DNA of 64,000 nt from Candidatus Bathyarchaeia archaeon (GCA_049512935.1 JBEKWR010000005.1:1-64000), one strand, 5' to 3'. Positions 18,101 through 60,139 are shown, counted from the stretch's first letter. The notes: generated by a model from the letters alone, not told the origin. A program made the numbers and translations.

Positions 18101-18126
18101 CTAAACCAAAAAAGCAATCCAAAATA
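18101..18126 (+). repeat. 26-bp island-edge motif, copy 1
   Basis: CTAAACCAAAAAAGCAATCCAAAATA; 23/26 identical to 47278-47303. Confidence 0.65.
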
Positions 18127-18267
18127 AGCCCTGGCTCTGCCTGACCCGACGGGGGAGGGGGTCTAGTATTTGTGGCAAAATTCCAACACAAAAATGGTTT
18201 TGCCGTCCAGATGGGGTTTGGCTTTAAATCTTTAACTATTTCTAGGCTGCATCAATTGTAGGTGTGA

Positions 18268-19818
18268 TTGTGGATGGAGTTAACGGTTGAACTCTTACCT
18301 ATATTTACGGGCGGAAGCAGAATCGCCATCCTCAGCGAAGAAGCCGCCAGCTCGTTGGGCGTGCACAGTTCCGACAGGATACGGATAAAATACGGCAACC
18401 AGGAAATGATTGCCATCGCGAACATCGCGGAGTTTTTTTCCAAAAGACGCATCGGGCTTTACGAGGAAACCGCCAAGGCGCTCGGCGTGAAGGAGGCGGA
18501 AACCGTTTCGGTGCATTTGGCTCCCCTTCCTGAATCGCTGTTCAACGTGAGAGCGAAGCTGCATGGGGAACGGCTACGCGAGAAAGACATCGTGACCATC
18601 GTAAAAGACGTGGTTGAGAGGCATTTGAGCTCGGCTGAAATTTCGGCTTTCTTAACCGCCCTGAGCATTTACGGCTTAAGCGCAAGCGAAAACGAGGCGT
18701 TGTCGAGGGCTATGGTCTCGACGGGAAAAACGATTAGCCTCGGCGAAGGACCCATCCTTGACAAGCACAGCGTCGGCGGGATACCTGGCGACAAAACGTC
18801 CATGTTGGTTGTGCCCATCGTTGCCGCTGCTGGGTACACGATTCCTAAGACTTCTTCGCGGGCAATCACTTCTCCCGCTGGAACCGCAGATAGGGTGGAA
18901 ACCCTGTGCCCCGTGAACCTCAGCATAGAAGAGATAAAGGCGGTGGTGGCGAAGACAGGCGGCTGCCTGGTTTGGGGAGGCGCCTTAGAGCTTGCGCCAG
19001 CCGACGACCTATTCATCCAAGTTGAATACCCCTTGGGGATTGACCCGATGCTGCTGCCTTCGATTCTCAGCAAGAAAAAAGCCATGGGCGCCACGCACGT
19101 TGCAATTGACATCCCGACAGGTATGGGAGCGAAAATTAAGAGTCGAACCGAAGCGTATACTTTGGCATCGGATTTCGTGGATTTAGGGAAACGTTTAGGC
19201 TTAAACATTCAATGCGCCCTAACTTTCGGTGACCAGCCGCTTGGCTGCGGCATTGGACCAGCACTCGAAGCCAGAGAAGCAGTAGCGACTCTTCTAGGCG
19301 GCGGACCACCCGACCTGCGCGACAAAGCCGTGAGCCTTGCAGGAATGCTTTTTGAGATGGTGGGAGCAGAGAACGGACGAGCCAAAGCTGAAGACATGAT
19401 TGACTCTGGCAAAGCAGCGGCGAAGATGCGGGAAATCATCGCGGCGCAGGGCGGAAACCCCAAGGTTCAACCCGACGACATACCCGTGGGTCCCGAATAT
19501 GCCGAGGTGAAATCTGACCGCTCGGGAAAAGTCATTTGGCTCAGCACCGACAACATCGTGCGAATCGCAAGAGAAGCAGGCGCCCCCAAAGAGAAGGGTG
19601 CAGGCATGATTCTACACGCGAAGCTCGGCGAAACCGTTCATAAGGACAGCGTGCTCTTCGAAGTCTACGCTGAGAAAAGCAGCAAATTGACGTCGGCGCT
19701 GGAGCTTGCCAAGCAACTGCCGCCTGTCCTGTTAACGAACAAACCAGCGGAAAAGATGATTCTGGACCAAGTGCCTGAGAAACTCGCACACGAAAAAACA
19801 TTCAGCTTAGACCGATAA
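18268..19818 (+). CDS. deoA: AMP phosphorylase (archaeal thymidine-phosphorylase family)
   Basis: DKHSVGGIPGDKT, KTSSRAITSPAGTAD, SILSKK and GIGPALEA motifs; N-terminal extension typical of AMP phosphorylases; ATG 18274 is the likely start. Confidence 0.92.
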   Translation: MWMELTVELLPIFTGGSRIAILSEEAASSLGVHSSDRIRIKYGNQEMIAIANIAEFFSKRRIGLYEETAKALGVKEAETVSVHLAPLPESLFNVRAKLHGERLREKDIVTIVKDVVERHLSSAEISAFLTALSIYGLSASENEALSRAMVSTGKTISLGEGPILDKHSVGGIPGDKTSMLVVPIVAAAGYTIPKTSSRAITSPAGTADRVETLCPVNLSIEEIKAVVAKTGGCLVWGGALELAPADDLFIQVEYPLGIDPMLLPSILSKKKAMGATHVAIDIPTGMGAKIKSRTEAYTLASDFVDLGKRLGLNIQCALTFGDQPLGCGIGPALEAREAVATLLGGGPPDLRDKAVSLAGMLFEMVGAENGRAKAEDMIDSGKAAAKMREIIAAQGGNPKVQPDDIPVGPEYAEVKSDRSGKVIWLSTDNIVRIAREAGAPKEKGAGMILHAKLGETVHKDSVLFEVYAEKSSKLTSALELAKQLPPVLLTNKPAEKMILDQVPEKLAHEKTFSLDR

Positions 19819-20016
19819 ACAAAAGCGCCGCCAAAAAAGGGGCAATGAAGCGTTTTCAGCCCTCAATCTTTCAGGTTGAACCAAGCGCAATATAGTTTAT
19901 ATGGGGAACTGTTAAGTACGTTTTACCACTTAACATACGTTAATTTTAATAAAGGGATGTTGCAACTATCCTTAAAAGCACGTAGAAGAGCAGAAAAAAA
20001 GGGGTCTTTCTAGGAT

Positions 20017-20709
20017 TTGACGAAGCGACAAGCAGTTTGGGTGTGGACCAAAAAAGTATTCAGTCTAACACTAATTCTAAACGCATTGATAACAATAACT
20101 ACGCTTGCAGGAATCCTCTACGGCGTCTTCTTTCAGTGGTGGAAACCTTGGTATCCAGAGTTAATCAGCGGCAACCTCTTTATCGTTGTAGCCATAGCTG
20201 CAATCATCAACATTTTCCCAAGCGCAAGCATCGGGCGAGCCTTGCACACGGGGCGATTTTTATTCCATCATTATGTCTACGGTTTTTTTGTCCTATTTTC
20301 ATCAGCCATCTACGTCGTGGCATTCACATCGGTTTCGTTAGTCATGCTTTTTCTGGTGAACTCTTCAAGCGTTGCGGTTAACGCAGGACGACTTTTCCTC
20401 TTGACAGGCTTAACCCTGGTCTTAGATGACCTCCCAGATGTTTCAAAGAGAGTTGAATTCTCCCTAAACAAGATAAAATCAGCGGTCTGCCGAATACGAA
20501 GGGTCTTCCATTATCTGCAGTTAGCGACGGGGGTCGTCACATTCTACATTTCAGTCGCTATCGCCGTCTTCGAAGTTTACCATCCATCCACAAACATTGA
20601 AAACTACCTTACCATGACCACCCTGATGATAACCAGCTTGACATCGTTTGCCTGCGTGAAGCGGAAATCGTGGCTTAAGATTACGCCGCCAAACGGCAGC
20701 GCTCATTAG
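20017..20709 (+). CDS. integral membrane hypothetical protein
   Basis: About six TM helices; LHTGRFLFHHYVYG and LDDLPD segments. Confidence 0.7.
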   Translation: MTKRQAVWVWTKKVFSLTLILNALITITTLAGILYGVFFQWWKPWYPELISGNLFIVVAIAAIINIFPSASIGRALHTGRFLFHHYVYGFFVLFSSAIYVVAFTSVSLVMLFLVNSSSVAVNAGRLFLLTGLTLVLDDLPDVSKRVEFSLNKIKSAVCRIRRVFHYLQLATGVVTFYISVAIAVFEVYHPSTNIENYLTMTTLMITSLTSFACVKRKSWLKITPPNGSAH

Positions 20710-21416: not shown

Positions 21417-21565
21417 GGATTAATCGCTCATGACCTTTTCGTCTTGAGGCTATATTACCTTAATGCATTTGACACGTGATACTTCAGGGAAGACAAAGCG
21501 GCGTATCACATCGTTTGAACACAATTAGGCAATCTTTATTATCGCTCACGCTGAATGAAGCAAGC

Positions 21566-22774
21566 ATGACTGCTGAAAAAAGAGAAACTGCCCATGGAAG
21601 GTTTTTTCTTCCCGCTTTAGGGTTGGCAGTTTTTTCTGTGTGGCTTGTTACAGTCACTTTTGAACTTTTGCTGATTGACATTGCAAACACGTTTCATGTT
21701 CAAGTGGGAACGGCAGGTTTCGTGGCTGCGGTAGGTTCCATCTCGGGTATAGCCGCTGGGCTGCTATTATCCGTCATAAGCGTACGCTTTAACCACAAAC
21801 TGCTCTTGATGGTCGGATTGGCGTGCACCAGCGTGGCGGCGGTAGGCTTCTTTTTTGCCCCAACGTTTGATTTGCTGTTAATCCCGAACATTGCGGTGGG
21901 AGCCGGAATAGCGATGGCTACTGCCATGGCTTACTCCTTAATCGGCGAATTTTACCCGCTTGAAAAAAGAGGCAGAGCAATCGGCTGGATAGTTGCAGCC
22001 TCCGCGTTGACGTACATCATCGGAACGCCCATAATCGGGCTGATTGCCAGCGTCAGCAATTGGAGGGCAACGATGATTTGGTTTTCGTTGCCAGTCGCTT
22101 TGGCAAGTTTAGTTTTGGTTTTCATCGCGGTTCCCAAAAAATCAAATGAAAACTTCGCCGCTGTGAAGGAGCCCTTTTTTGAGGGGTGCAAACAAGCGAT
22201 CTTGAACAGGTCAGCGGTCGCAGCTTTGTTCGTTACGATGTTCATCATGGCGGAGGGATCAATCAGCTTTTACGCTGTTTCCTTCTTCAGGTCTCAATTT
22301 GCCATTACGATAGCGCTGGGTTCCATTGTCATTTTAGTCGGAAACGTTCTTTCGGCTGCAGGCGGCGTCGTTGCAGGATTCTTCGTGAATCGGATAGGTC
22401 GAAAACCTTTAGGAACCTTCACCTGTTTGGTGGCGGCTTTTCTCACGTTGTCTTTCACGTTTATGCCTTCGTTCGGGTTGTCTTGGGGGTTGAGCGCTCT
22501 TCGATTCTGGTTTGCTGGGATGTCATTCACTGCAAGCGGCAGCTTAATTATTGAGCAACTGCCTAGATTTCGCGGTCCCATGATGTCGCTTAACGCGGTT
22601 TTCATGAACCTGGGAATGCTTTTGGCATCCGTCGCAGGGGGAATAGCCCTCGACCTCTACGGTTACCAAACATTAGCGTTGATACTGGGAGGTTTGGGCG
22701 TGCTTGGCGCAGTAGTTTGGGTGACTCTGGTCAGGGACCCATGCAAAAAACAAGAAACAAAATTCCCATCATAA
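21566..22774 (+). CDS. MFS transporter
   Basis: About twelve TM helices, YPLEKRGRAIG and VNRIGRK loop motifs; ATG 21566 preferred over GTG 21476. Confidence 0.88.
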   Translation: MTAEKRETAHGRFFLPALGLAVFSVWLVTVTFELLLIDIANTFHVQVGTAGFVAAVGSISGIAAGLLLSVISVRFNHKLLLMVGLACTSVAAVGFFFAPTFDLLLIPNIAVGAGIAMATAMAYSLIGEFYPLEKRGRAIGWIVAASALTYIIGTPIIGLIASVSNWRATMIWFSLPVALASLVLVFIAVPKKSNENFAAVKEPFFEGCKQAILNRSAVAALFVTMFIMAEGSISFYAVSFFRSQFAITIALGSIVILVGNVLSAAGGVVAGFFVNRIGRKPLGTFTCLVAAFLTLSFTFMPSFGLSWGLSALRFWFAGMSFTASGSLIIEQLPRFRGPMMSLNAVFMNLGMLLASVAGGIALDLYGYQTLALILGGLGVLGAVVWVTLVRDPCKKQETKFPS

Positions 22775-22831
22775 AACAAAAGAAACAAAAGTGAAAAAAT
22801 GGCTGCCTTCAAAAAGGCAAGGGTGCTTGAT

Positions 22832-24268
22832 TTATTTCTTGTTCATCAAGTATTCGTGCATTGCTTTTGCCGCGCGTTTGCCTGCGCCCATTGCGCTGAT
22901 GACTGTTGCTGCTCCTGTGGCGACGTCTCCGCCTGCGTAGACTCCGTCTAGGCTGGTTTTGCCTACGTCGTTGACGCATATGGTTCCGTGTCTGGAGTCG
23001 CTTTGCAAGCCTTCAGTTGTGCGCTGTATGATGGGGTTGGGTGTTTGTCCGATGGCAACGATGACTGTGTCGACGTCCATGGTGAATTCTGAGCCTGGAA
23101 CCTCTTTCACTCCCCGCCTGCCTTTCGCGTCGGGTTCGGTGAGCTCCATTGCGATGACCTTCATGGCTTTAACCCAGCCTTTCTCGTCGCCGTAGAACTC
23201 GACTGGTGCAGCGAGGAACTTGCAGACTAAGCCTTCTTCTTCAGCGTTTTCGATTTCCTCGTGTCTTGCGGGTAATTCGTTGCGTGAACGTCTGTACACC
23301 AAGCAAACTTCGGAGCCTAAACGCATACTGCATCTTGCGCAGTCCATAGCCACGTTTCCGCCGCCGATAACGACGACTTTTTTGCCGAGGCGTATAGGCG
23401 TGTCGTAATCTGGGAACTGAAATGCTTTCATGAGGTTGACGCGTATCAGGAACTCGTTGGCTGAGTAGATTCCGCCGAGGTTTTCTCCTGGGCAGCCCGT
23501 GAACTGTGGCAATCCTGCGCCGCTGCCGATAAAGACCGCGTCGTAACCGCCTTCCTTCATGAGTTCTGGGATGGTGTGGATTCTTCCAACCAAGTTACCG
23601 AGACGCAAATCAACGCCGAGCTTCTGGATGTAGGAGACCTCGTTCTGCACGATTGCCTTGGGCAAACGGAACTCGGGGATACCGTAGGATAACACTCCGC
23701 CGCCGACGTGCAATGCTTCAAACATTGTAACTTTGTGACCGAGCTTTATCAAATCAGCCGCAGCCGTTAAACCTGCAGGACCAGCGCCGACGATGGCGAC
23801 TTTCTTGCCTGTTGGCGCGGCTTTCGGTGGAAGCGCGGAGCCGTTGTCGCGTTCCCAGTCTGCGAGGAATCGTTCAAGCCGTCCGATGCTGAGGGGTTCG
23901 CCGATTTTTCCAACGATACATTTGGCTTGGCATTGCACTTCTTGGGGGCAAACTCTTCCGCAGACGGCTGGCAACGCATTCTTCGACTTGATCAGGGCGA
24001 TGGCTTCACCGTGCTTCTTTTCTTTAAGCAGTTTGATGAATGCTGGAATTGGAACTTCCACTGGGCAGCCTGTCATGCATTGAGGTTTGACGCACTGCAG
24101 ACATCGGCTTGCTTCTTCAAGCGCCTGCTCTTCAGTGTAGCCTAAAGCCACTTCGTTAAAGTTTTTAGCCCTAATCTTAGGTTCTTGTTTTGCCATTTCA
24201 ACTGCTTTCTTTTTTATCTGGGGTCTCGGTTTAGCTTCTGGTTTTGCTTCAGGTTTAGTTTCTGCCAC
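22832..24268 (-). CDS. nfnB: NfnB/SudA (GltD-like) large subunit of electron-bifurcating transhydrogenase
   Basis: EASRCLQC..P.C..GCP, CGRVCPQE.QC...C, GAGPAG, GGGNVAMD and AGGD motifs; adjacent to nfnA. Confidence 0.88.
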   Translation of the reverse strand: MAETKPEAKPEAKPRPQIKKKAVEMAKQEPKIRAKNFNEVALGYTEEQALEEASRCLQCVKPQCMTGCPVEVPIPAFIKLLKEKKHGEAIALIKSKNALPAVCGRVCPQEVQCQAKCIVGKIGEPLSIGRLERFLADWERDNGSALPPKAAPTGKKVAIVGAGPAGLTAAADLIKLGHKVTMFEALHVGGGVLSYGIPEFRLPKAIVQNEVSYIQKLGVDLRLGNLVGRIHTIPELMKEGGYDAVFIGSGAGLPQFTGCPGENLGGIYSANEFLIRVNLMKAFQFPDYDTPIRLGKKVVVIGGGNVAMDCARCSMRLGSEVCLVYRRSRNELPARHEEIENAEEEGLVCKFLAAPVEFYGDEKGWVKAMKVIAMELTEPDAKGRRGVKEVPGSEFTMDVDTVIVAIGQTPNPIIQRTTEGLQSDSRHGTICVNDVGKTSLDGVYAGGDVATGAATVISAMGAGKRAAKAMHEYLMNKK

Positions 24269-29452: not shown

Positions 29453-29794
<342 letters not shown>

Positions 29795-29825
29795 CTATCT
29801 CCAATAAAACACAATCAACCAACCG

Positions 29826-30029
29826 CTAGCTATTAACCTTTTTCCTTTCTTCTTTGGCTTCGCTACCCTTTAAAGAGCCCTCGACGGCTTCACCGATCTT
29901 GGTAACTTCCGCTTTTATGGCGTCGGCTTTCTCCTTGATGCTCTTCACTTCTTCTTCCGCCATTTTTTCAATTTGCAGGCTAAAATTCTGGTAGTCTTTT
30001 TCCAACTTTTCTTTTGACATGCTCGTCAC
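29826..30029 (-). CDS. small charged coiled-coil protein in the ATP synthase operon
   Basis: 67 aa, Glu/Lys-rich and helical; co-oriented between the USP gene and atpK. Confidence 0.55.
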   Translation of the reverse strand: MTSMSKEKLEKDYQNFSLQIEKMAEEEVKSIKEKADAIKAEVTKIGEAVEGSLKGSEAKEERKKVNS

Positions 30030-30039
30030 GTCCTAGCGC

Positions 30040-30483
30040 TTATTTAATAACCAAGACAGGGCAAGGCGCGTATTCAATCACTCGTTCAGCGACGCTTCCG
30101 ATGAGAATCCTATCGGTGCCCCTTCGCCCATACGTGCCCATCACAATTAGATCAGCGTTCAACTCTTTGGCTAAATGCACAATCTGCTCGAATGGTCTTC
30201 CCTCAGTGATTAAAGATGAAGAATTAACGCCTTCCTTCCCCGCTAAGCCGACAACATAATTCACGTAGCCTTTCCCATCTTCCTTCAGTTCCCGCTCAGC
30301 AACTTCATGTGCAGTTATTTTCGCTATTTGGTCAAGCACAACATCGTCAACGACGAAAACCACCACAATTTGAGCACCGATCATTTTGGCTACACTTATC
30401 CCATACTCGGCGGCACGCAGGCTAATTTCTGAACCGTCAGTCGGGACCAAAATTTTCTTGACATTCTTAAAGTTCAGACTCAA
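30040..30483 (-). CDS. universal stress protein
   Basis: KILVPTDGS and DLIVMGTYG...GSVAERV...APCPVLVIK motifs. Confidence 0.93.
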   Translation of the reverse strand: MSLNFKNVKKILVPTDGSEISLRAAEYGISVAKMIGAQIVVVFVVDDVVLDQIAKITAHEVAERELKEDGKGYVNYVVGLAGKEGVNSSSLITEGRPFEQIVHLAKELNADLIVMGTYGRRGTDRILIGSVAERVIEYAPCPVLVIK

Positions 30484-30487
30484 TTTT

Positions 30488-31114
30488 TCAACGCCTTCTA
30501 ATCATATATTTAATTCTTTTAGTGCGAACGAATTCCTCGCGGTCTTTTTCTTCCAAAACCAGCGCAATCTGCTTGACAATGTTGCGGTACATGGGAATGA
30601 GGACGTAATTCAGTGCGTTAACCCGCCGCTGCGTCCTTTTAACGTCGCTAGCGATCTGAAACGTTGTGCCTTCAGCCTTGGCTAAATCAGCGAGTAACGC
30701 CAGCAAACTGTAAAACTGCTTAAACGCTTTATCCAACTCGGAACTTGTGTTGGCGAAACCATAATCAGGCTTAACTTCGGCGGTACTGCAGAACTCAACA
30801 GCGGGGACGACTACGCCCATTATGCTTTTGAAGTCCATCAAGAAATCAGCTTCAAAACGGGAACCGCAAGCGACGTTTGAAATTGTCTCTGAGCCCTTAG
30901 CCATGTTTGCCTCTTTTATAGCCTGATAAGCCTTCGCAAGGGCTTCCAGTAAATCCGCTCGCGCCCGTTCAGCCTCGTAAATGCTGTTTCTTAGTTCCCG
31001 AAGCAGAATGTCACGTTTGCGTTCCAGCACGTCACGTCCTGACTGAGCCAAAGCCAGAGTCTTTTTTGTCTGAATCAAGTTTATTCTTGTTGGGCTGATG
31101 TTTTCAGCAGACAA
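30488..31114 (-). CDS. atpD: A/V-type ATP synthase subunit D
   Basis: PTRINL, LERKRD.L, TQRRVNAL and LEEKDREEF motifs. Confidence 0.93.
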   Translation of the reverse strand: MSAENISPTRINLIQTKKTLALAQSGRDVLERKRDILLRELRNSIYEAERARADLLEALAKAYQAIKEANMAKGSETISNVACGSRFEADFLMDFKSIMGVVVPAVEFCSTAEVKPDYGFANTSSELDKAFKQFYSLLALLADLAKAEGTTFQIASDVKRTQRRVNALNYVLIPMYRNIVKQIALVLEEKDREEFVRTKRIKYMIRRR

Positions 31115-31118
31115 CCGC

Positions 31119-32516
31119 TTACTTTACCTCTTGAGCCTTCTTTGGATAATACTTCTCAATGTACTCAGGATGCACGTGTATCAATTCCTCATCAGGCAAA
31201 ACTGACAAGGTATCCCATGCAATATTGAGAGTGTCCTCGATCGTCCTGTTCTCATCCTTGCCTTGGTTAATCAGCGTCTTCTCGAAACGTTCACCGAAAC
31301 GCAGGTATTCCCTGTCTCTTGTTCCCAAACCTTCTTCTCCGATGATCGTCGCGAGAGACTTCACAGAGTTGTACTGCGCATAAGCCGCGTAAAGCTGGCT
31401 TGCAACGTCGGCGTGATCCGCCCTTGTTCGCCCTTTCCCAATGCCGTCCTTCATGATTCTGGACAAACTCGTGGTGATATAGATCGGCGGGTAAATGCTC
31501 TGCTTTTCCAAGTTGCGGGACAGCACAATCTGCCCTTCAGTGATGTAGCCTGTGAGGTCAGGGATAGGATGAGTTATGTCGTCGTTGGGCATGGTTAAAA
31601 TAGGCATCTGGGTGATCGAGCCTTTCTTGCCAGCGACTCTTCCTGCGCGCTCATACACGCTTGCAAGGTCACTGTACATGTAGCCTGGATAGCCTTTCCT
31701 ACTCGGAACCTCCTCCATTGAAGCACTCACTTCCCGCAGAGCCTCGCAGTAGTTGGTCATGTCAGTCAAGATTACCAGAACGTGCGATTCCTGATCAAAC
31801 GCCAGATACTCCGCCAAAGTCAAGCCAGCCCTCGGCGTGATAATACGCTCAACAGGCGGGTCTTCAGCCAAGTTAAGAAACATCGCCACGTTCTTGATTG
31901 CGCCAGTCTCCTCAAAGCTTCTTCTGAAAAACGCCGCGTCATCATGCTCCAGCCCCATGGCTATGAAGACGATGAAGAATTCTTCACTTGCACCTCGAAT
32001 GGTTGCCTGCCTGACAATTTGAGCGGCAAGCTCGTTGTGCGATAAGCCTGGACCGCTGAAGATGGGGAGCTTTTGACCTCGCACCAGGCTGTCTAAGCCG
32101 TCAATCGCCGAAATGCCCGTTTGAATGAAGTCCCTTGGATACTCTCTGGAAGTGGGATTCAGGGGGAACCCGTTAACGTCACGTCGCTCTTCACTGAAAA
32201 ACCGTGGGTGACCGTCGATGGGCTCGCCGAAACTGTTCATCACGCGCCCCAGCATCTCGGTTGACACTGGCACTTCCAGCGGTTTTCCTAAAAATCGAGT
32301 GCGTGTTTCTGAAGGTGACAGGCCCGTTGTGCCCTCGAAGACTTGTACTGTTACGGCTTTCTGAGTGACTTGAATCACTTTGCCCAGTCGTATTTCGCCA
32401 GTTTGAGCCCTCACCGCTACGAGTTCTTCGTAACCGACGCCCTGCACGTTTTCCACGACGATGATTGGCCCTGAAATTGAAGCGACGCCCTTATACTCTA
32501 CTCCTAAACCTGCCAT
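31119..32516 (-). CDS. atpB: A/V-type ATP synthase subunit B
   Basis: [31 protein letters not shown] and [14 protein letters not shown] motifs. Confidence 0.96.
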
Positions 32517-32521
32517 ACGCT

Positions 32522-34291
<1,770 letters not shown>

Positions 34292-34295
34292 TTTC

Positions 34296-43855: not shown

Positions 43856-44506
43856 TTATGGTCTCCGAAAGGTGTCCCCTGATTCCCAAAGGTCAATCGT
43901 TCCAACACATGGAGCATAGACGTTCTCAAATTCATATTGATTGCTGATCGTCCGCATGGCTGCAAAGGCACGTATGTGACTTTTTGGAAAAGCATCTACC
44001 AACCGATTTGCAGCACCTAGAAGGGTTGCTCCACGAGTAACTACATCATCGACTAACAAAATTTCTTCTGGTTTATAGAGGCTTCCTTGGACACTCATCG
44101 ATTCATAATGTTGCTCTGCAGTTGGCCTCTCACTTGGTGAACTTGATGCTGCCTTCGGCACAGGTTTAGCCCTAACGAGGAATGAGGCAACATCTTTTCC
44201 AATGCCTTTCATGACTAGGGCAGTTGCAATTCGTTGTGGGACCCATAGTGTGTTTGGCTGCATCAAAGAACTCCTTGGGACAGGAACTAAGATCGTGTTT
44301 GGTTGAAAAAATGACGCAAATGGAAGTTCAGCCATTTTTCGTTGTATTGTCTGTGCTATCCATTCTGACATCAATGTCGGTGGTGTGCCTACGAATCCGT
44401 CCCTCTTAAGTGCAAGCATAACATCCTTAGAGTGCCGTATTTCTGGGGAATCCCCATGAGGCGCGTAAGTTAAGAGTGCACCAAACTCAAGTTGAGAGAG
44501 ATTCAT
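43856..44506 (-). CDS. phosphoribosyltransferase-fold (ComF-like) protein
   Basis: LVPVPRS and ILLVDDVVTRGATL PRPP-binding motifs; no ComF zinc ribbon. Confidence 0.85.
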   Translation of the reverse strand: MNLSQLEFGALLTYAPHGDSPEIRHSKDVMLALKRDGFVGTPPTLMSEWIAQTIQRKMAELPFASFFQPNTILVPVPRSSLMQPNTLWVPQRIATALVMKGIGKDVASFLVRAKPVPKAASSSPSERPTAEQHYESMSVQGSLYKPEEILLVDDVVTRGATLLGAANRLVDAFPKSHIRAFAAMRTISNQYEFENVYAPCVGTIDLWESGDTFRRP

Positions 44507-44509
44507 GTT

Positions 44510-45199
44510 TCATGGAACCACTTCAAGGATTCTTTCCCGAGAGGGTAAAACATCCAGCACTTCTTCTGGGTCTGTGAATTCTATTGCGCCATACATAGCC
44601 ATCTTTTTTGGCCAGTTCAATGAAGGGTCATGCATGATGGGACTCCAAATGAATAGCGGTCGTCCAAGCCTGAGAGCTTCCCATCCTTGATGCAGAGAAC
44701 CGCTGGCATCCCCAGCCTCAACAATAATTGAGGCATCAGAGATAAGTGCCATTGTTCGATTTCTGAGAACGAAATTCTTTGGCTGAATCGGGTATCCAAT
44801 TGGAAATTGGGAAATGATCAAGTGATGACGCATAATGACTTCTTGAAGTTGTAGGTTTTTTCGTGGGTAAACTCGATCCAATGGCGTCCCAAGAACCGCG
44901 ATTGTATGTCCACCTTCTTCAATGGCAGCTTTGTGTGCCGAAGTGTCAATTCCCTCAGCAAGCCCGCTAACAACTATTACACTATGTCTTGCAAGGGTTC
45001 TTGCAATGTTGCCAGCTGCGTTAAGACCTCTAAGAGAGGCTTTCCGTGAGCCTATGACTGCGACTCTTGGACTTGGTAATGGAATCGACAGTTGCCCTAT
45101 AACATAGAGTTCTTTTGGTGCATATTTCTTTTCCACGTCGTTCAGTGGGCCAATAAGCTCTTCGAGGCTATAAGTGGAAGTGCTTATCCCTGTTAGCAT
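44510..45199 (-). CDS. short DprA/SMF-family protein (Rossmann-fold core only)
   Basis: VAVIGSR, VSGLAEGIDT.AH, FVLRNR and VEAG..SGS motifs. Confidence 0.9.
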   Translation of the reverse strand: MLTGISTSTYSLEELIGPLNDVEKKYAPKELYVIGQLSIPLPSPRVAVIGSRKASLRGLNAAGNIARTLARHSVIVVSGLAEGIDTSAHKAAIEEGGHTIAVLGTPLDRVYPRKNLQLQEVIMRHHLIISQFPIGYPIQPKNFVLRNRTMALISDASIIVEAGDASGSLHQGWEALRLGRPLFIWSPIMHDPSLNWPKKMAMYGAIEFTDPEEVLDVLPSRERILEVVP

Positions 45200-46853: not shown

Positions 46854-47138
46854 CTACGCTGGTTCAAGCGTTACTTCCGCCACGTAGCCAGCCAGGCTTG
46901 CCCCTTCAGCCGCGAAGAGGCCCCGCACCAGCTTGGGTATGGTTATTCTTCCGTTTTTGTTCATTTTTGCGTAAAAAAACTGCCAGCCTTTGTGCAGGTC
47001 TAAAAAGTTTACGCCGACTTTCAGCGCCTGGTCAGACTCCAACTTGAAGCGCCAGCGAATTAGCTTGGGGATCTGCACTGTGTTTGTGGTTTGGAGGGCT
47101 GCGGTGAAGGTGACTTTTTCTGTTAGCGGCATATGCAT
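46854..47138 (-). CDS. tandem AbrB/MazE/SpoVT-like DNA-binding protein
   Basis: Two swapped-hairpin-like repeats: F...LQTTNTVQIPKLIR and FYAKMNKNGRITIPKLVR. Confidence 0.7.
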   Translation of the reverse strand: MHMPLTEKVTFTAALQTTNTVQIPKLIRWRFKLESDQALKVGVNFLDLHKGWQFFYAKMNKNGRITIPKLVRGLFAAEGASLAGYVAEVTLEPA

Positions 47139-47170
47139 CGTGCAGTATTCTCTTCGGCGAAGGCGTTAAT

Positions 47171-47345
47171 AAACGCTGACCAACGCTAATCCACGGGATT
47201 CAACGGGAAAACACGGGAAACAACGGGAACCCACGGGATTCAACGGGAAAAAACGTGACCTGCCAACCCAGCAAACCCCAAACCAAAAAAGCAACCCAAA
47301 ACAAACCCAACAAAAACCAGACGCAAAACCGCCCAGAAACCCATC
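47171..47345 (+). repeat. 10-bp phased array plus C/A tract containing island-edge motif copy 2
   Basis: Nine decamers nnACGnnnnn at 47171-47260 (six contain ACGGGA), then CCAAACCAAAAAAGCAACCCAAAACA at 47278-47303. Confidence 0.85.
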
Positions 47346-47352: not shown

Positions 47353-50300
47353 CTACCACATCTTCCAGGGCAAGTCATCCATGTACTCGTTGAGCGAGCG
47401 AATCGAGTTGCCGTTCTCGCTTTTATGCTTAAGCACATCCACCAGGGCAGCCGCCAACTGCAGGTTAGTTATAACCGGCACGTTGAACTCTACTGCTTGA
47501 CGCCGAATGATGTAGCCGTCAGTCAAGATATCGCTGTAACTGGTCTGCTTGTTAGCCATCGGCACATTAATCACCAAGTCAATCTTACGCTCCTGCAAAT
47601 AATCCAACACATTAGGAGAAACCCCAGCCTCCTTAACCTTAAAAAGCTTCACAGCAGCAACCCCCGACGCGTTAAGCACGTCAGCCGTATGATCCGTCGC
47701 GTAAATCTTGAAGCCCATGTCGACAAAAGCCCGCGCTATCGGCACAACCCGCCTCTTGCGTTCAATACTACCGCCGACGCTGATGAAAACCACACCGTCC
47801 CTGTCCGGGATACTGAACTCCGCCGAACGCAAAGCCTTACTGAAAGCATCCGAAAAGTTCTCACCCAAACATGCAACCTCACCAGTGCTAAGCATTTCAA
47901 CTCCGAGGACAGGATCGGCGCCGCTCAAACGCATGAAACTGAACTGCGGAACCTTCACGCCCACGTGATTAGCCACCGTCATAGGCGACAGCTTCACATC
48001 AATCTTCTTGCCAAGCATCGCCAAAGTCGCCAGCTCAATCAGGTTTACTCCCCGGGTTTTGCTGACAAACGGCATCGACCGCGACGCCCGCAAGTTACAT
48101 TCGATAACGTTAACCACGTCATCCTTAACCAAGTACTGAATGTTGTATGGCCCATGGATCTTGAGCGCCTTAACGATGCGCTGCGTGCAATCCTCAATTT
48201 TCTGCTGAACCTCAATCTTCAACGCCTGAGGAGGAATAGTCATGGTCGCGTCGCCGCTGTGAACACCAGCGTACTCCACATGCTCCATTATCGCGCCGAT
48301 AAACACGTTCTCCCCGTCAGAGACACCGTCCACCTCAACTTCCTTGGCGTGCTCAATGAACTTGCTGATTACAACAGGATGGTCACGCGAAACTTTCGCA
48401 GCCAGCTTTAAGAAGTTCTCAAGCGACTCCGCATTATAAGCCACACGCATCGCCGAACCAGACAGCACATAGCTCGGACGCACAATAACGGGGTAACCTA
48501 TTTTCTCCGCAAACCGCTTAGCCTCACCGATCGACAGAAGCTTACTCCAGCTTGGCTGGCAAATCTGGAGCTGATCAAGCAGCGCACTGAACTTGGAGCG
48601 GTCTTCAGCCAAATCAACGTTTTCAGCTGACGTGCCGAGCAGTTTGACGCCTGCTTCCGAAAGCCCCATGGCGAGGTTGTTTGGAATCTGACCGCCGACG
48701 CTGGTTATGACGCCCATCGGGTTCTCTTTCTCGTAGATGTCCAAGATCCGCTCGATGGTAAGCTCCTCGAAGTAGAGTTTGTCTGAAACATCGTAATCCG
48801 TTGAGACTGTCTCAGGGTTGTAGTTGACCATGATGGCTTCTTGAATGCCGTTCTTCTTGAGCGCCCAAATCGTGTTGACGCCGCACCAGTCAAACTCCAC
48901 GCTTGAGCCTATCCTGAAGACCCCAGCGCCTAAAACAATAACTTTGCTTATACCACTTTTGAGTTCGATGTCGTCCTCGTCTCCGCCGTAGGTGAGATAG
49001 AGGTAGTTCGTTTTCGCCGGCCACTCAGCCGCCAACGTATCGATCTGCTTGATGACAGGAAGTATGTTCGCGTTTTTCCTAAATGTTCTGATCGTGGATT
49101 CATCAGTGTTCTGGCACACGGCTATTTGCTCGTCTGAGAAGCCAATGCGTTTGGCTTCCCGAACGACTTCAGCAGCGCAGCCGTCGCCAAGGTTTAACTG
49201 CCTGAGTTCCTTTTCCATGTCTATGATGTTTTGAATCTTGTTTAGGAAAAAGGGGTCTACGCCGCTTAAACGGTAAATTTCAGCGATAGGTATTCCCATC
49301 TTTAAGGCTTTAACAATCTTGTAGAGACGCTCGTCAGTAGGGTTCGCAAGCACGTCGCGAATTCTCGCTTCTGACTCTGGCTCTGAATCTTCAGGGTTGC
49401 AAACCAAGCCTATCTTGCCCGTATCCAACATGCGAACGGCTTTCTGCAGCGCCTCTTCGAAACAGCGGCCGATCGACATTACTTCGCCTACAGAACGCAT
49501 CTGAGGACCAACATGGCGGTCAGCGTTCTTGAACTTCTGCAGGTCCCACCGCGGAATCTTTACGGTTATGTAGTCTAAGGCTGGTTCGAAGCAGGCGGTT
49601 GTAACTTCAGTCACTTTGTTGATGAGCTCAGGCAGCAAATAGCCCAACGTCAGCTTCGTCGCTATGTAAGCCAACGGGTACCCAGTCACTTTGCTGGCCA
49701 AGGCGCTGCTTCGGGACATTCGCGAGTTAACTTCGATTACACGATACTCTTCAGACTTCGGATGCAGAGCCCACTGAATGTTGCATTCGCCCACGATGCC
49801 TAAAGCGCGGATAGCATTTATCGACGTTGAACGGATAAGATGATACTCCCTGTTAGACAATGTCTGCGACGGCGCAACCACTATTGAGTCGCCCGTGTGC
49901 ACACCCATCGGGTCGAAGTTTTCCATGTTGCAGACGGTTAAGCAGTTGTCCGCGTAGTCCCGCATAACCTCGTACTCGACTTCTTTCCAGTGCCCAACAT
50001 ACTCCTCGATGAGAACTTGGCAGATTCTGCTTTGAGCCAAACCGCGAGTTGCCACTTCTTTCAGTTCTTCACAGTTATGGGCTACACCCGCCCCCTTGCC
50101 GCCGAGAGTGTAGGCAACCCGAACTATGACTGGGTAACCAATCTCGTTAGCCACGTCCAAGGCTTGCTGGACGCTTGTGGCTGACTTGCTATTCAACGGC
50201 GGAACATTTGCCTTAAGCATTGCTTGGCGGAAGCGTTCGCGGTCACCTGTGTCTTCTATTGAGTGTATGGGTGTGCCTAAAACTTTGCAGTTGTACTTTT

Positions 50301-50625
50301 GCAAGATGCCTTTTTTCTCAAGTTCCACGCCGCAGTTCAAGGCAGTTTGTCCGCCGAAGCCTAACAAGATGCCGTCGGGACGTTCTTTTTCGATGACTTT
50401 CTCAACGTATTCAGGAGTAACGGGTAAAAGGTAAACTTTGCCTGACAGGCGCGGGTCAGTCTGGATAGTCGCGATGTTTGGGTTAACCAAAACGGTTTCT
50501 ATGCCCTCTTCCTTCAAAGCCTTGAGGCATTGGCTGCCTGAATAGTCAAATTCGGCTGCTTCACCGATCTTTATGGCGCCGCTGCCGAGAACCAGCACCT
50601 TCTTTATCCAGTCGAACTTTGGCAT
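47353..50625 (-). CDS. carB: carbamoyl-phosphate synthase large subunit
   Basis: GSGAIKIGEAAEFDYSG, duplicated ATP-grasp domains, C-terminal MGS domain. Confidence 0.97.
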   Translation of the reverse strand: MPKFDWIKKVLVLGSGAIKIGEAAEFDYSGSQCLKALKEEGIETVLVNPNIATIQTDPRLSGKVYLLPVTPEYVEKVIEKERPDGILLGFGGQTALNCGVELEKKGILQKYNCKVLGTPIHSIEDTGDRERFRQAMLKANVPPLNSKSATSVQQALDVANEIGYPVIVRVAYTLGGKGAGVAHNCEELKEVATRGLAQSRICQVLIEEYVGHWKEVEYEVMRDYADNCLTVCNMENFDPMGVHTGDSIVVAPSQTLSNREYHLIRSTSINAIRALGIVGECNIQWALHPKSEEYRVIEVNSRMSRSSALASKVTGYPLAYIATKLTLGYLLPELINKVTEVTTACFEPALDYITVKIPRWDLQKFKNADRHVGPQMRSVGEVMSIGRCFEEALQKAVRMLDTGKIGLVCNPEDSEPESEARIRDVLANPTDERLYKIVKALKMGIPIAEIYRLSGVDPFFLNKIQNIIDMEKELRQLNLGDGCAAEVVREAKRIGFSDEQIAVCQNTDESTIRTFRKNANILPVIKQIDTLAAEWPAKTNYLYLTYGGDEDDIELKSGISKVIVLGAGVFRIGSSVEFDWCGVNTIWALKKNGIQEAIMVNYNPETVSTDYDVSDKLYFEELTIERILDIYEKENPMGVITSVGGQIPNNLAMGLSEAGVKLLGTSAENVDLAEDRSKFSALLDQLQICQPSWSKLLSIGEAKRFAEKIGYPVIVRPSYVLSGSAMRVAYNAESLENFLKLAAKVSRDHPVVISKFIEHAKEVEVDGVSDGENVFIGAIMEHVEYAGVHSGDATMTIPPQALKIEVQQKIEDCTQRIVKALKIHGPYNIQYLVKDDVVNVIECNLRASRSMPFVSKTRGVNLIELATLAMLGKKIDVKLSPMTVANHVGVKVPQFSFMRLSGADPVLGVEMLSTGEVACLGENFSDAFSKALRSAEFSIPDRDGVVFISVGGSIERKRRVVPIARAFVDMGFKIYATDHTADVLNASGVAAVKLFKVKEAGVSPNVLDYLQERKIDLVINVPMANKQTSYSDILTDGYIIRRQAVEFNVPVITNLQLAAALVDVLKHKSENGNSIRSLNEYMDDLPWKMW

Positions 50626-51783: not shown

Positions 51784-51784
51784 C

Positions 51785-59082: not shown

Positions 59083-59119
59083 GGATTTCGGGGCTTGGAA
59101 AAGCCTCGAGCTTTTTGTT

Positions 59120-59638
59120 TTACTGCTGATATGGCGCTGTGTTCTGCGTCCAGCGGTCTCGCCGATATTTGCGTCTTGCCCGCCAGAATAGCATTCGAGC
59201 CACAAACATCACGATTAAAACAACCAGCAGGATGAGGAGGATTTCGCCTGGAAAGTACCCCGCTCCGTGGTAAACGTAGAGGTAAAACAGCAGAAGACCG
59301 ATGACGATGATGCCGATCGGCAGCATGAGTAAAATTCCGCCGTAACGCATCCAGCCTGGAGCACCGCCTTGCCTACCATAGCCGCCGCTTCCGCCAGCCA
59401 TGTTAGCGCGTTGTTCCTGGATTTGTTTAAGCCGCTCTTCGTTGAGGTAGTATTTGCCGTTTACTTCCACAATAATGCCCGATTGTCCGAGTCTTCGCTG
59501 CATTGCTTGTTCAAATCGAGGCGGCAAACCCAGTTCTTGGATTGTCATTGCTTTTTCGGGGGCTGTGGCTCCTTTTTCCCTGAACTTCTGAATTATTTCT
59601 TGCAGTCGTCTGCGTCTTTGGTCTTGGTTGTTGAACAT
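59120..59638 (-). CDS. membrane protein with an N-terminal winged-helix-like domain
   Basis: KFREKGAT.PEKAMTIQELGLP...GIIVEVNGKYYL, Gly-rich linker, two TM helices. Confidence 0.7.
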   Translation of the reverse strand: MFNNQDQRRRRLQEIIQKFREKGATAPEKAMTIQELGLPPRFEQAMQRRLGQSGIIVEVNGKYYLNEERLKQIQEQRANMAGGSGGYGRQGGAPGWMRYGGILLMLPIGIIVIGLLLFYLYVYHGAGYFPGEILLILLVVLIVMFVARMLFWRARRKYRRDRWTQNTAPYQQ

Positions 59639-59899
59639 TTAGGTTTCCTCCATGGCGTGTTTTTCAGGCTTTTCTTCCGTTGCAGTGTCGAGTCCCTGCA
59701 TTATTTTTTCTGCAAGTTCTCTCATCGCGTCGGCTTTAACCATGGTGATGCCTCGGCGGTTTCTGCCTGTCATGACGAAGAGCATGTCGCCTGGTTTGAT
59801 GTCTAGTTCTTTGCGGGCGTCGGCTGGGATGACTACTTGTCCTCTTTCGCCGACTTTTACGGTTCCGTACAGTCGCCCTTCATGTTTTGTTTCAGTCAT
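59639..59899 (-). CDS. AbrB/MazE/SpoVT-family transcription regulator
   Basis: GTVKVGERGQVVIPADARKELDIKPGD; ATG 59899 or 59926. Confidence 0.9.
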   Translation of the reverse strand: MTETKHEGRLYGTVKVGERGQVVIPADARKELDIKPGDMLFVMTGRNRRGITMVKADAMRELAEKIMQGLDTATEEKPEKHAMEET

Positions 59900-59980
59900 A
59901 AACAGCACACTTTTCCTACATTTCATACATGGCGTTTTGTATTTAAGAATTACGCCGCTGACGCCTCGGCTCTAAGTTTA

Positions 59981-60139
59981 GTGTTGGGGGTTTGGCTTTT
60001 TTGTGGTCTGTGTTTTGGGTTGTTTTTTTGGTTTGGTGTTTGAGGCGTTGGCGGGTTGCGACCCGTAGCGACCCTGCCCGACTCGTAGCGACCCTAAACG
60101 ACCCATTTCGTCCCTAATTGACCCAGCCCGTCCTTTCCC
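59981..60139 (-). repeat. G/T tract containing island-edge motif copy 3, plus 10-bp phased array
   Basis: Reverse complement of 60011-60036 is CCAAACCAAAAAAACAACCCAAAACA (25/26 to copy 2); eight decamers starting GACCC/GACTC/GTCC at 60060-60139. Confidence 0.85.

Follow-up and report, generated by a model that had tools for sequence, protein, structure and literature searches.

A polar C/A-rich intergenic element of soil and peat Bathyarchaeia, linked to 10-bp phased repeat arrays and to genes of a putative MraZ-like DNA-binding protein family

Archaeal RNA polymerase is terminated by oligo-T tracts of five or more, and ordinary archaeal terminators share only T-richness; intrinsic terminators of archaea are not known to require as many as 32 conserved positions. 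Protein-assisted, polar termination is found with eukaryotic RNA polymerase I. At its terminators (Sal box/TTF-I and Reb1, including the promoter-proximal T0), a DNA-bound protein sits immediately past the T-stretch. Multi-copy intergenic mosaics of short motifs and hairpins are known as REP/BIME elements, which include the IHF-binding RIP variants. Intergenic repeats of 29-58 bp that carry promoters are reported for halovirus HF2 (PMC8707807). In Mycoplasma genitalium, a multi-box MraZ operator lies upstream of the dcw operon and has been visualized by cryo-EM (9r4j, 9sz7); the MraZ boxes are reported to be direct repeats with a 10-bp period, consisting of GTG(G/T) and six spacer nucleotides (PMC12957436).

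The DNA analysed here, referred to as the window, is a stretch of 64,000 nucleotides from a Candidatus Bathyarchaeia archaeon (GCA_049512935.1, JBEKWR010000005.1:1-64000). A preliminary description had reported three copies of a 26-mer in it, and all three were recovered: a search of the window gave one copy at 47278-47303 (+) with no mismatch, one at 60011-60036 (-) with one mismatch and one at 18101-18126 (+) with three mismatches, all of which are C-to-T when read from the sequence, as described. In 100 dinucleotide-preserving shuffles there was not a single match with up to three mismatches, and an nhmmer profile made from 102 Bathyarchaeal copies detected just these three copies when run against the window. 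In the alignment of sites 2 and 3, the homology exceeds the 26-mer and continues through ACC(T/C)GCCAAC, with the GGG phase of both neighbouring arrays in register. The conserved stretch comprises ~32 nt (CAARCCCYAAACCAAAAAARCAACCCAAAACA). Its C/A strand has almost no G or T and cannot self-pair, and the G/T strand of all three window copies has a T6 tract with T4 and T3 alongside. The initial caution that low complexity inflates similarity fails as an explanation, since the positions left free in the search pattern are 90-97% conserved among the matches listed (C in 97/102 and 93/102 copies). Copy 1 lies 140 nt upstream of a gene that is deoA-like by its domains (18268-19818, +), the T-rich complement of copy 2 follows 51 nt past the stop codon of carB (47353-50625, -), and a MazE/AbrB-type gene is found 86 nt downstream of copy 3 on the same strand. 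The features of the three sites are listed in the table.

Table. Position of the element, its accessory parts and the AbrB-type genes in the window
Feature	Position	Strand	Basis and remarks
Perfect 20-bp palindrome CTTTTGGAATATTCCAAAAG	18018..18037	.	Read from sequence
Motif copy 1, extended (34 nt) CAAGCCCTAAACCAAAAAAGCAATCCAAAATAAG	18095..18128	+	nhmmer E=4e-9
Class B unit: G-rich box GACGGGGGAGGGGGTC, then hairpin (TTTGTG/CACAAA arms, 12-nt loop)	18148..18195	+	Read from sequence
AbrB2 gene, 94 aa	46854..47138	-	AlphaFold2/Foldseek; transcribed away from array
TATA-like box GTTTATTAAC	47163..47176	-	Read from sequence; between array and AbrB2 start codon
Array, 9 units, exact 10-bp phase, ACGGGA type (ACG phase; TCCCGT in AbrB2-gene orientation)	47173..47259	+	By eye and Tandem Repeats Finder
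Junction box GTGACCTGCCAACCCAG, variant of conserved G[AT]C[GT]CAACCTGCAAAC	47255..47271	+	Alignments
Motif copy 2	47272..47305	+	26-mer search and nhmmer
MazE/AbrB-type gene (PF04014)	59639..59926	-	Pfam E 2e-9
Motif copy 3, extended	60009..60042	-	nhmmer E=4e-5
Junction box GTCGCAACCCGCCAACGCCT	60043..60062	-	Sequence and alignment of sites 2 and 3
Array, 8 units, 10-bp phase, GGGTC/GGGAC type (GAC/GTC phase)	60060..60139	-	By eye and Tandem Repeats Finder

The motif is not peculiar to this window. Scanning a collection with one genome per species yielded at least 115 loci, at least 93 of which are titled Bathyarchaeota or Bathyarchaeia. There are at least 102 unique copies in at least about 24 species-level MAGs, with at least 23 copies in a single MAG, and the element is found in a clade of soil and peat Bathyarchaeia. 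The copies among the matches listed fall between genes, for the most part next to core housekeeping ones (thermosome, proteasome alpha, TFE, RpoB, RpoH, EF-2, RFC, DnaG, SUI1, LSm, L44e, carB and others). Some of them occupy orthologous positions in different MAGs. The placement next to carB, for example, recurs in loci L028, L067 and L076, and in these four genomes the motif has been kept and the array units have diverged (ACGGGA, AATCGC, TTGACTT, AGTCG). In our reading, selection maintains a lineage-specific intergenic element of ~32 nt (~55 nt with the junction box), and the 26-mer is its core.

Tandem Repeats Finder located period-10 arrays at 47191-47255 and 60058-60104. Both are on the side that the C/A strand reads out of, in keeping with the earlier observation of arrays on the “accessory side” of two copies; we call this side the outside of a copy. 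Among the matches listed, three or more phased units are present outside 39/100 copies and inside 5/100, and at 1/360 random positions. The array unit of site 2 recurs next to the AbrB2 orthologues in L036, L108 and L095, and arrays occur without any AbrB2 gene nearby in L047, L030 and L109. Between array and motif there is always a junction box among the matches listed; its spacing to the motif is fixed, and 26 strictly matching copies give the consensus gaC.CAACCTgCAAAC. The junction box of site 3 contains a GTCGCAAC box, which is also present 4-6 times in class A elements.

The core motif is common to classes A, B and C of the element. In class A, 4-6 AAAGTCGCAAC boxes are distributed over both flanks of the motif, a palindrome (GAAAGTCGCAACTTTC) is present, and GCAAC(TT/AA)AAAAAT follows ~62 nt past the motif. 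Class C has a TATA-like AAC-A5-7-T ~10 nt past the motif. The 20-bp palindrome of site 1 belongs to the class B form, whose upstream part it makes up, and it is found with a covarying centre (GTAATATTAC or GGAATATTCC) ~70 nt ahead of the motif in L006, L034, L037, L050, L064 and L069. One to three class B units are present per locus, and their hairpin arms covary (TTTACA/TGTAAA vs TTTGTG/CACAAA; L010, L031, L032, L034, L050, L056, L075 and others). Only these accessory units and the 20-bp palindrome, not the core motif, can form hairpins. An Rfam 15 scan of the window at gathering thresholds returned two tRNAs only, and E-value scans around the three sites gave a chance-level match only (E=0.64, at the palindrome of site 1).

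The predicted structure of the AbrB2 protein encoded outside site 2 is a swapped-hairpin beta-barrel formed by a single chain, like PhS018 and MraZ. In a Foldseek search, its AlphaFold2 model (pLDDT 92.6, pTM 0.85) matched PhS018 best (2glw; E 4e-5, TM 0.72), followed by MraZ structures (probability 0.96-0.99, TM-score 0.43-0.47), and by this predicted structure the fold is built from two homologous halves. No match was obtained among the PDB sequences or in Pfam with E up to 10, including the MraZ and AbrB/MazE families. A search gave 90 unnamed homologues, one JGI record lists a homologue as a PrlF-type antitoxin/regulator, and there are several paralogues per genome. AbrB2 appears to represent a new family of small, MraZ-like, putative DNA-binding proteins. 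Co-occurrence with AbrB-type genes, which the preliminary description had proposed to examine, proved to be real: all 15 AbrB2 genes detected by tblastn among the matches listed (one of them, in L095, 5'-truncated) have motif and array upstream, in the order T/G motif, box, array, TATA, ATG, with at least three direct repeats at a 10-bp period ahead of the gene. The repeat unit is shared within clades (TCCCGT in the window, L036 and L108; AAAGAYA in L063 and L027; GACT in L076 and L046). The TATA-like box of site 2 is a putative promoter element of AbrB2, and GTTTATTAA likewise precedes the AbrB2 genes of L028, L036 and L108. The MazE/AbrB-type protein near site 3 gave no tblastn cross-match with AbrB2, and the two are not homologues. 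A tblastn search with 41 AbrB2 homologues did not reveal an AbrB2 remnant beyond the array of site 3 (best E=0.046).

The two sides of the motif differ. In other genomes, GC content is lower outside in 49/63 copies (Wilcoxon p=4.9e-6), and genes recognisable by NCBIfam are present outside in 26/75 cases vs 52/73 inside (p=9e-6, among the matches listed). Synteny is kept across the motif in 3/15 pairs, as compared with 10/16 for a control step (p=0.03; the pairs are not independent). Neighbouring copies more than 600 bp apart are convergent in 10 cases, tandem in 6 and divergent in 1 (sign test p=0.012, among the matches listed), and the convergent pairs enclose blocks of 3-13 kb. Genes were called with our own hexamer model, and several of the statistics in this paper include orthologous, non-independent loci.

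We tentatively prefer to regard the element as a polar transcription boundary, i.e. a terminator-insulator, with the arrays as AbrB2 operators, although its function may well turn out to be a different one. Conservation, distribution, polarity statistics and anatomy of the element, its linkage to AbrB2 and the predicted AbrB2 fold are results of the analysis; the activities that we infer are termination, insulation, binding of AbrB2 to the arrays and a roadblock. RNA polymerase exiting a gene block on the G/T strand would meet a zone of ~140 nt with additional T5+ runs and then the T4, T6 and T3 tracts of the element, and would be halted; the C/A strand has no such T-runs, and inward transcription would pass. 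A polymerase that is stopped on one strand and passed on the other would explain why core blocks are bordered by inward-pointing copies. A number of copies would act behind converging genes such as carB, and those upstream of promoters would cut off divergent or antisense transcription. The 10-bp arrays just outside the motif would serve as operator arrays for AbrB2 proteins, each AbrB2 clade having its own repeat unit, and the AbrB2 genes would always be shielded by motif and array. A roadblock ~20-25 nt past the T-tracts, either bound AbrB2 or a protein on the universal GTCGCAAC box, could account for the fixed spacing and for the conservation beyond the T-runs.

The distribution of T-runs is consistent with such a polar boundary. 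When the stretch from +20 to +140 is divided into 20-nt bins, 26-46% of the copies have an A5+ run on the C/A strand (T5+ on the other) in a given bin; for 285 upstream regions taken as control, the value is 8-13%. T5+ runs on the C/A strand remain at the background level (0-9% from -20 to +120), and this excludes a symmetric bidirectional terminator. Each window copy has at least five consecutive T on the strand on which a transcript would be ended. Among the matches listed, a converging gene is found ahead of the motif in 21/66 copies, at a distance of 24-438 nt. These genes usually have a T5+ run of their own 2-73 nt past the stop codon and before the motif, which would thus be a second terminator in series at best. 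Window sites 1 and 3, like 45/66 copies overall (among the matches listed), have no annotated gene pointing toward the T-rich strand, so that termination there could only affect hypothetical divergent or antisense transcripts. The original remark was that only the copy at 47.3 kb can be explained as the oligo-T terminator of an adjacent gene; site 2 follows carB, and sites 1 and 3 have no gene so placed. The conservation of the motif argues for a sequence-specific reader, for which no candidate was found.

A reader of this kind could also be a conserved transcription factor or architectural protein that binds the motif in the distal promoter of core genes. In the activating or anchor-site version it would cooperate with factors on the arrays and GTCGCAAC boxes, comparable to an IHF/UP-type site between activator sites and promoter. 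In favour of this rather unlikely alternative, a co-oriented gene follows ~50-430 nt downstream in 45/66 copies (binomial p=0.004, among the matches listed), class A copies, with few exceptions, precede housekeeping genes of the same orientation and are flanked by AAAGTCGCAAC boxes, the sequence conservation is strong and asymmetric with a fixed spacing to the junction box, and the class C and class A motifs are followed by the sequences mentioned above. However, a converging gene ends in front of the motif in 21/66 copies, the conserved carB site among them, and the motif is reversed upstream of 15 AbrB2 genes, so that its orientation to the presumed target is inconstant. The distance to the start codon varies from ~50 to 430 nt, separate canonical TATA boxes lie nearer the genes, and the 10:1 bias for convergent pairs would not be predicted. 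An RNA-level element is improbable. The C/A strand would then be an unstructured A/C-only leader of highly expressed genes, or the G/U-rich strand the 3' end of a small RNA, such RNAs being produced by the hairpin units of classes A and B. Between the motif and +140, the downstream gene's sense strand is indeed A-rich and T-poor in comparison with the 285 control regions, an A/C-only RNA cannot fold according to base-pairing rules, the class B arms covary, and class A has its palindrome; but class A motifs have no canonical TATA upstream, no Rfam family matches, a leader fails for copies that face gene 3' ends, and the stems are almost all perfect Watson-Crick, as DNA palindromes would be. Mismatches in the hairpin arms (one G:U vs two A:C, in nine hairpins) do not discriminate. 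If the reader were a nucleoid-associated, SMC-loading or domain-boundary protein, the polarity would reflect domain edges and not transcripts. The convergent pairs around 3-13 kb blocks, the differences between the two sides in GC, gene content and synteny, and the specific reader implied by strong conservation would suit such a chromosome-organising site. It is nonetheless decidedly improbable: a candidate protein was not found, the ParB_N gene at 61482-62525 is no regular neighbour of the motif in other loci, and at least 23 copies in one MAG at a few-kb spacing are denser than the known archaeal domain boundaries.

The first interpretation of the motif, according to which a family of integrative elements uses it as attachment site or landing pad or carries it as terminal signature, is largely refuted and very improbable. 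It had been based on directional accessory/core junctions. Of these, the polarity generalises in the weaker form of GC, gene content and synteny, but not as a mobile-element boundary; all three window copies abut low-GC or variable DNA, but the break at site 2 does not coincide with the motif. There, three other MAGs have AbrB2 gene, array and motif in synteny with carB, and the comparison of the four genomes places the break at the 3' end of the AbrB2 gene, ~450 bp from the motif. The more frequent loss of synteny across the motif than across the control step would fit integration, as would an IS110 transposase (L066) and a Cas4 (L016) among the upstream neighbours. The recombinase association that had been proposed as a check did not materialise: apart from the one IS110 transposase, the 75 nearest array-side genes of the other loci listed include no integrase, nor do the window blocks, and the sole recombinase-type Pfam match among 63 window ORFs is an IS240-type DDE at 63070-63606, 3 kb from site 3. 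Neither the 26-mer search nor nhmmer found a directly repeated partner at the far end of any window block (13.7-18.0 kb, 43-47 kb). Copies that form a pair are in inverted orientation, facing inward on the core genes between them, which is the opposite of island-flanking direct repeats. The majority of copies are next to housekeeping genes, in positions that are orthologous between species, and at carB, the only comparable site, the four genomes do not show the pattern of a filled versus an empty site with the core as exact boundary.

In comparison with known systems, the element resembles archaeal oligo-T terminators in that one strand has T4, T6 and T3 tracts, to which T5+ runs are often added in series, and in that it can lie 24-120 nt past the stop codon of a converging gene, carB for instance. 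It differs from them in that conservation across species covers 32 positions, there is no gene to terminate at two thirds of the copies, and the motif has a fixed coupling to junction box and arrays. With RNA polymerase I terminators it may share, by analogy only, a conserved orientation-dependent element next to a T-rich stretch and a placement both behind genes and just upstream of promoters, in another domain of life and with another polymerase system. Like REP/BIME, it is multi-copy, strictly intergenic, a modular mosaic and often located at the ends of transcription units. However, its core is not palindromic, a hairpin core of the REP/BIME type being rejected due to the near absence of G and T from the C/A motif; the copy number is tens and not hundreds per genome, copies are kept at orthologous sites between species, and the genes nearest to the motif, inside and outside, include no RAYT-type transposase in the loci listed. 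The HF2 repeats are likewise repeated intergenic sequences with a regulatory (promoter) role in an archaeal system, but they are viral and not chromosomal and carry AT-rich promoter motifs, whereas the C/A motif is unlike the canonical TATA boxes near the MAG genes.

From MraZ, AbrB2 differs in its length of only 94 aa without the helical oligomerisation part, in its several paralogues per genome with a repeat unit that changes by clade, and in arrays of the same type that also occur away from AbrB2 genes; it is nearer to PhS018 than to MraZ in structure and matches neither in sequence. AbrB2-type arrays are always coupled to the C/A motif, for which MraZ operators have no known counterpart. 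AbrB2 shares with MraZ that it is a small, putatively DNA-binding protein with two AbrB-like halves predicted in one chain, and that its gene is preceded by 3-9 direct repeats with a 10-bp period near its own promoter, a placement that would suit autoregulation.

The preliminary description had reported three copies of a C/A-rich 26-mer, and all three were recovered where it had placed them (see table); the 26-mer is the core of an element of about 32 nt. No match with up to three mismatches occurred in 100 dinucleotide-preserving shuffles of the window, and a profile search of the window with the core returned the three known copies and no others. Phased 10-bp arrays had also been noted beside two copies, on the side that the C/A strand (the motif strand rich in C and A) reads out of, and they were confirmed at sites 2 and 3 by TRF and by eye. 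When the three regions are aligned, sites 2 and 3 remain similar through a junction box, ACC(T/C)GCCAAC, and their arrays have their GGG phases in register; at site 1, the box is split by 16 nt. A search of Rfam gave no family at or near the three sites. A further A/C-rich low-complexity tract (22738-22790, 1.9 copies of a 28-nt unit) lies between the gene of an MFS transporter (21476-22774) and the converging gene (22832-24268) of a pyridine nucleotide-disulphide oxidoreductase with a dihydropyrimidine-dehydrogenase-type 4Fe-4S domain; the profile search of the window does not count it among the motif copies.

Motif copies, associated repeats and selected genes of the window
Feature	Position	Strand	Remarks
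ParE-type toxin gene	9593-9883	-	adjoins tRNA-Thr (10189-10265)
Ribose-1,5-bisphosphate isomerase/e2b2	10434-11360		
Form III RuBisCO	12272-13495		
Palindrome, site 1	18018-18037		class B
Motif, site 1	18101-18126	+	3 mismatches, all C-to-T
Unit, site 1	18148-18195		class B
AMP phosphorylase/deoA	18268-19818		
AbrB2 ORF	46854-47138	-	start ~30 nt from array; TATA-like GTTTATTAAC between
10-bp array, site 2	47173-47259		nine ACG-phased units, counted by eye; period 10 by TRF
Motif, site 2	47278-47303	+	exact
Motif, site 3	60011-60036	-	1 mismatch
10-bp array, site 3	60060-60139		eight GAC/GTC-phased units, counted by eye; period 10 by TRF
ParB_N-domain protein	61482-62525	-	in block right of site 3
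IS240-type DDE transposase	63070-63606	+	in block right of site 3

A block of 4.3 kb (13.7-18.0 kb, 38-42% GC), with five ORFs without any family, interrupts the three-gene set of the archaeal AMP pathway. The block right of site 3 (60350-63606) is also of low GC (38-42%) and holds several family-less ORFs. Beside the tRNA-Thr gene, a small overlapping ORF upstream of the toxin gene (9858-10091, -) could encode the ParE antitoxin. The A-type ATP synthase cluster (29453-38714) has a universal stress protein gene (30040-30483) placed among its subunit genes, and its I subunit gene (35285-37330) runs on the other strand. In the variable region beyond the AbrB2 gene, among ORFs without known function and a GNAT gene, a phosphoribosyltransferase-domain gene (weak Pfam match) directly adjoins a DprA/SLOG-domain gene (43856-45199, -), a pairing that we take to resemble nucleotide-centred conflict systems.

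A one-genome-per-species collection was scanned with a 22-nt degenerate core. At least 116 stretches matched; 115 were taken as loci, the first 80 of them with 10-kb flanks. Among the matches listed, 93 of the 115 loci, from 26 assemblies, are titled Bathyarchaeota or Bathyarchaeia, and the flanking signature is present in 24 of these 26 assemblies. The remaining 22 listed loci include bacteria, an Asgard archaeon, a Woesearchaeote and two "uncultured archaeon" MAGs. Flanking conservation is absent from them except in the two "uncultured archaeon" loci (L042 and L083) and in L093, and the others look, from their sequence, like chance low-complexity matches. L093 is a 2.6-kb contig (DPLR01000025.1) with a motif-like C/A tract from a MAG titled Cytophagales UBA11987, and NCBI also names an AbrB2 homologue (P0037, 70% identical) a Cytophagales protein; Bathyarchaeal contigs may have been mis-binned in this MAG.

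After removal of duplicates, at least 102 Bathyarchaeal copies remained, with the consensus CAARCCCYAAACCAAAAAARCAACCCAAAACA. Positions that the pattern left free are conserved as well among the matches listed: C at -2 in 97/102 copies, C at +22 in 93/102, and C at the second free N in 96/102. One MAG (prefix CAWABA) holds at least 23 copies. The MAGs with the element derive from peat and soil. The window's own genome is absent from the loci, the nearest matches being 78-84% identical. The motif strings matched no paper in the searchable literature, and a further search gave nothing relevant on conserved intergenic motifs or promoters of Bathyarchaeia; neither search brought up an account of their transcription signals.

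The core occurs in three contexts, tallied for 100 copies among the matches listed. Class A, with at least three boxes (24 of the 100 listed copies), is a module of about 240 bp in which four to six AAAGTCGCAAC boxes flank the motif on both sides. In class B, to which site 1 belongs, a 20-bp AT-rich palindrome precedes the motif at about 70 nt, and the motif is followed by one to three units, each some 60 nt long, with a G-rich box and a hairpin with covarying arms; G:U and A:C mismatches in these arms, compared for a sign of the transcribed strand, number 1 versus 2 in only nine strict hairpins. In class C, which includes sites 2 and 3, a 10-bp repeat specific to the locus (three units or more) is followed by the junction box G[AT]C[GT]CAACCTGCAAAC and then by the motif. 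Arrays and class B units can occur together, and many arrays are T-rich by eye. The placement of phased arrays is directional and specific: among the listed copies they were found upstream of 39/100 and downstream of 5/100, compared with 1/360 random positions.

On contig CAWABA010000001.1 (L030), two near-identical class C elements at 6061 (+) and 10000 (-), 3.9 kb apart with six ORFs between them, are inverted and face inward; they have a CAGACTATTA-type array and the junction box in common. By sequence, the pair looks like a recent duplication of the whole boundary module. Close tandem pairs 120-220 bp apart were also observed (L007 10000/10220, L036 9830/9989, L039 4336/4515, L051 17319/17483, and L076). 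Their members have separate arrays with differing unit types, which suggests that modules can be stacked.

The AbrB2 protein of the window has no sequence match in Pfam or PDB. Its 90 homologues are unnamed and about 92 aa long; two contigs hold more than one match each. From 41 sequences, AlphaFold2 gave a confident model (pLDDT 92.6). The structure nearest to it is PhS018 (Pyrococcus horikoshii; 2glw, E 4e-5, TM 0.72), and MraZ structures come next, among them 2026 cryo-EM complexes with promoter DNA. According to PMC4333400, PhS018 is a relative of the AbrB/MazE/MraZ swapped-hairpin barrels that forms a single chain in archaea. MraZ, by the account in PMC12957436, places one subunit on each of four GTG(G/T) boxes, which lie six nucleotides apart ahead of its own promoter.

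All 15 of the 15 AbrB2 homologues in the loci listed show the same order in gene orientation: the motif on the G/T strand (the T-rich complement), junction box, 10-bp array, TATA and ATG. One of the genes is truncated at its 5' end, and four of the motifs had diverged too far to be caught by the scan pattern. Repeat units follow the clades of the protein, with TCCCGT in the window, L036 and L108, AAAGAYA in L063 and L027, and GACT in L076 and L046. We infer that the arrays are putative, autoregulatory AbrB2 operators. They probably act in trans as well: arrays of the same type occur without an adjacent AbrB2 gene, such as the ACGGGA array in L047, in the MAG that also holds the AbrB2 gene of L108. 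The correlation between clade and unit could also be explained by shared descent. Remnants of an AbrB2 gene were sought beside sites 1 and 3, and none was found (best E = 0.046).

The preliminary description held that the C/A strand reads from accessory into resident DNA. Elsewhere this stands as a tendency. Among the matches listed, the 3-kb GC content is lower on the array side, i.e. upstream of the C/A strand, in 49 of 63 non-window copies (mean -2.7 points, p = 4.9e-6), with the dip at -3 to -1 kb. A conserved downstream flank was accompanied by a conserved upstream flank in 3/15 inter-MAG pairs, versus 10/16 for the control step within the downstream side (p = 0.03), where six pairs come from the four carB genomes and several of the tests take in orthologous loci. 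Where neighbouring listed copies are separated by more than 600 bp, 10 pairs converge, 6 are in tandem and 1 diverges (p = 0.012); the window's own sites 2 and 3 enclose the 12.7-kb block from carB to lysC. The associated proposal that the motif is the end or landing pad of an integrative element did not hold: flexible DNA does tend to accumulate on one of its sides, but hallmarks of mobile elements are missing. A co-occurring recombinase was looked for in the 75 nearest array-side genes among the matches listed, which include no integrase and one IS110 transposase, besides one Cas4 and one VapB. An attachment site of a mobile element is the least likely explanation.

Genes were called with a home-made hexamer log-odds caller, for which ORFs of 350 aa or more in the Bathyarchaeal loci served as the training set. 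It was used instead of a plain longest-ORF caller that gave many spurious ORFs over stop-free C/A tracts, and it recovers the Pfam-supported genes of the window. Of the 81 listed copies with gene context, 15 fell within a called ORF; we take these to be false calls over stop-free tracts and the copies to be intergenic. In the 66 clean cases among the matches listed, reading in the C/A direction leads first to a co-oriented gene in 45 and to a converging one in 21 (p = 0.004). These neighbours are mainly core genes. The co-oriented ones include thermosome (2), proteasome alpha (2), TFE (2), RpoB, RpoH, EF-2, RFC, DnaG, SUI1, LSm, L44e, Sso10a, Hsp20, topoisomerase I, PyrB, G1P dehydrogenase and GDH, and the converging ones carB (3), RnfC, S19, L31e, L37ae, AspRS and NrdG. 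NCBIfam matches were obtained for 52/73 genes in the C/A direction versus 26/75 nearest genes on the array side among the matches listed (Fisher p = 9e-6). Placement is orthologous across MAGs at the proteasome (L022/L064), TFE (L032/L074), thermosome (L006/L015) and carB genes (window/L028/L067/L076).

On its G/T strand, the motif contains T4, T6 and T3 tracts. Throughout the 140 nt on its inner side, further T5+ runs occur on this strand in 26-46% of copies per 20-nt bin, compared with 8-13% in 285 control upstream regions, and the C/A strand is almost without them. Since archaeal RNA polymerase terminates at oligo-T tracts, the element would stop outward transcription on the G/T strand, and inward transcription would be let through. 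Such a polar stop fits the converging genes (carB in four genomes), the constant placement before AbrB2 promoters, the inward-facing pairs, and the link with strongly expressed core genes, from whose promoters divergent transcripts might otherwise run into the neighbours. T-tracts do not by themselves explain the conservation of 32 positions; we therefore propose that the sequence is recognised by a specific reader, or that a roadblock stands 20-25 nt past the T-tracts, at the junction box and array. That the 32-nt element has stayed nearly constant at more than 100 intergenic sites, across about two dozen species, implies that a dedicated reader exists and that the element has a general role in separating transcription units.

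Three other roles were rejected. The motif is not the first terminator of converging genes, as a T5+ run usually lies 2-73 nt past the stop codon, before the motif; nor is it a symmetric bidirectional terminator as a general rule, as upstream T5+ runs on the C/A strand are at background (6-13% per bin). It is also unlike the ordinary TTTAWATA-type boxes that the genes of the loci carry near their starts, and thus no canonical promoter. Two observations speak against the terminator reading: converging genes are usually already provided with a T5+ run ahead of the motif, and for two thirds of the copies there is no annotated transcript that could be stopped. Rival readings are a site for a distal activator or an architectural protein, a leader or small-RNA end acting at the RNA level, and a chromosome-domain site, the last having been the second proposal of the preliminary description. 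In its full form, the terminator reading states that the motif, the universal GTCGCAAC junction box and the arrays form a protein-assisted, orientation-dependent roadblock terminator-insulator that brackets core blocks, an archaeal counterpart of TTF-I/Reb1, and that it is run by diversified miniature MraZ-like proteins, each with its own 10-bp "array code", so that boundaries are separately tunable. We regard this full form as a speculative and rather improbable proposal.

Bathyarchaeia are abundant, largely uncultured archaea, and the candidate polar terminator and the matched protein-operator pairs are potential parts for archaeal genetic tools. AbrB2 with its clade-specific arrays would offer a tractable system for how swapped-hairpin regulators gain new DNA specificities. 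We see in the motif a conserved and polar element at boundaries, tied to a new branch of these regulators; the kinds themselves are known. Compared with an oligo-T terminator, the motif is alike in composition but unlike in conservation and placement. The predicted AbrB2-array pair would work like MraZ and its operator, although AbrB2 is outside the MraZ family by sequence and is unlike it in size, in paralogy and in the diversity of its units. Polar, protein-assisted terminators of Pol I are also found upstream of promoters, and by analogy they may be the nearest functional counterpart.
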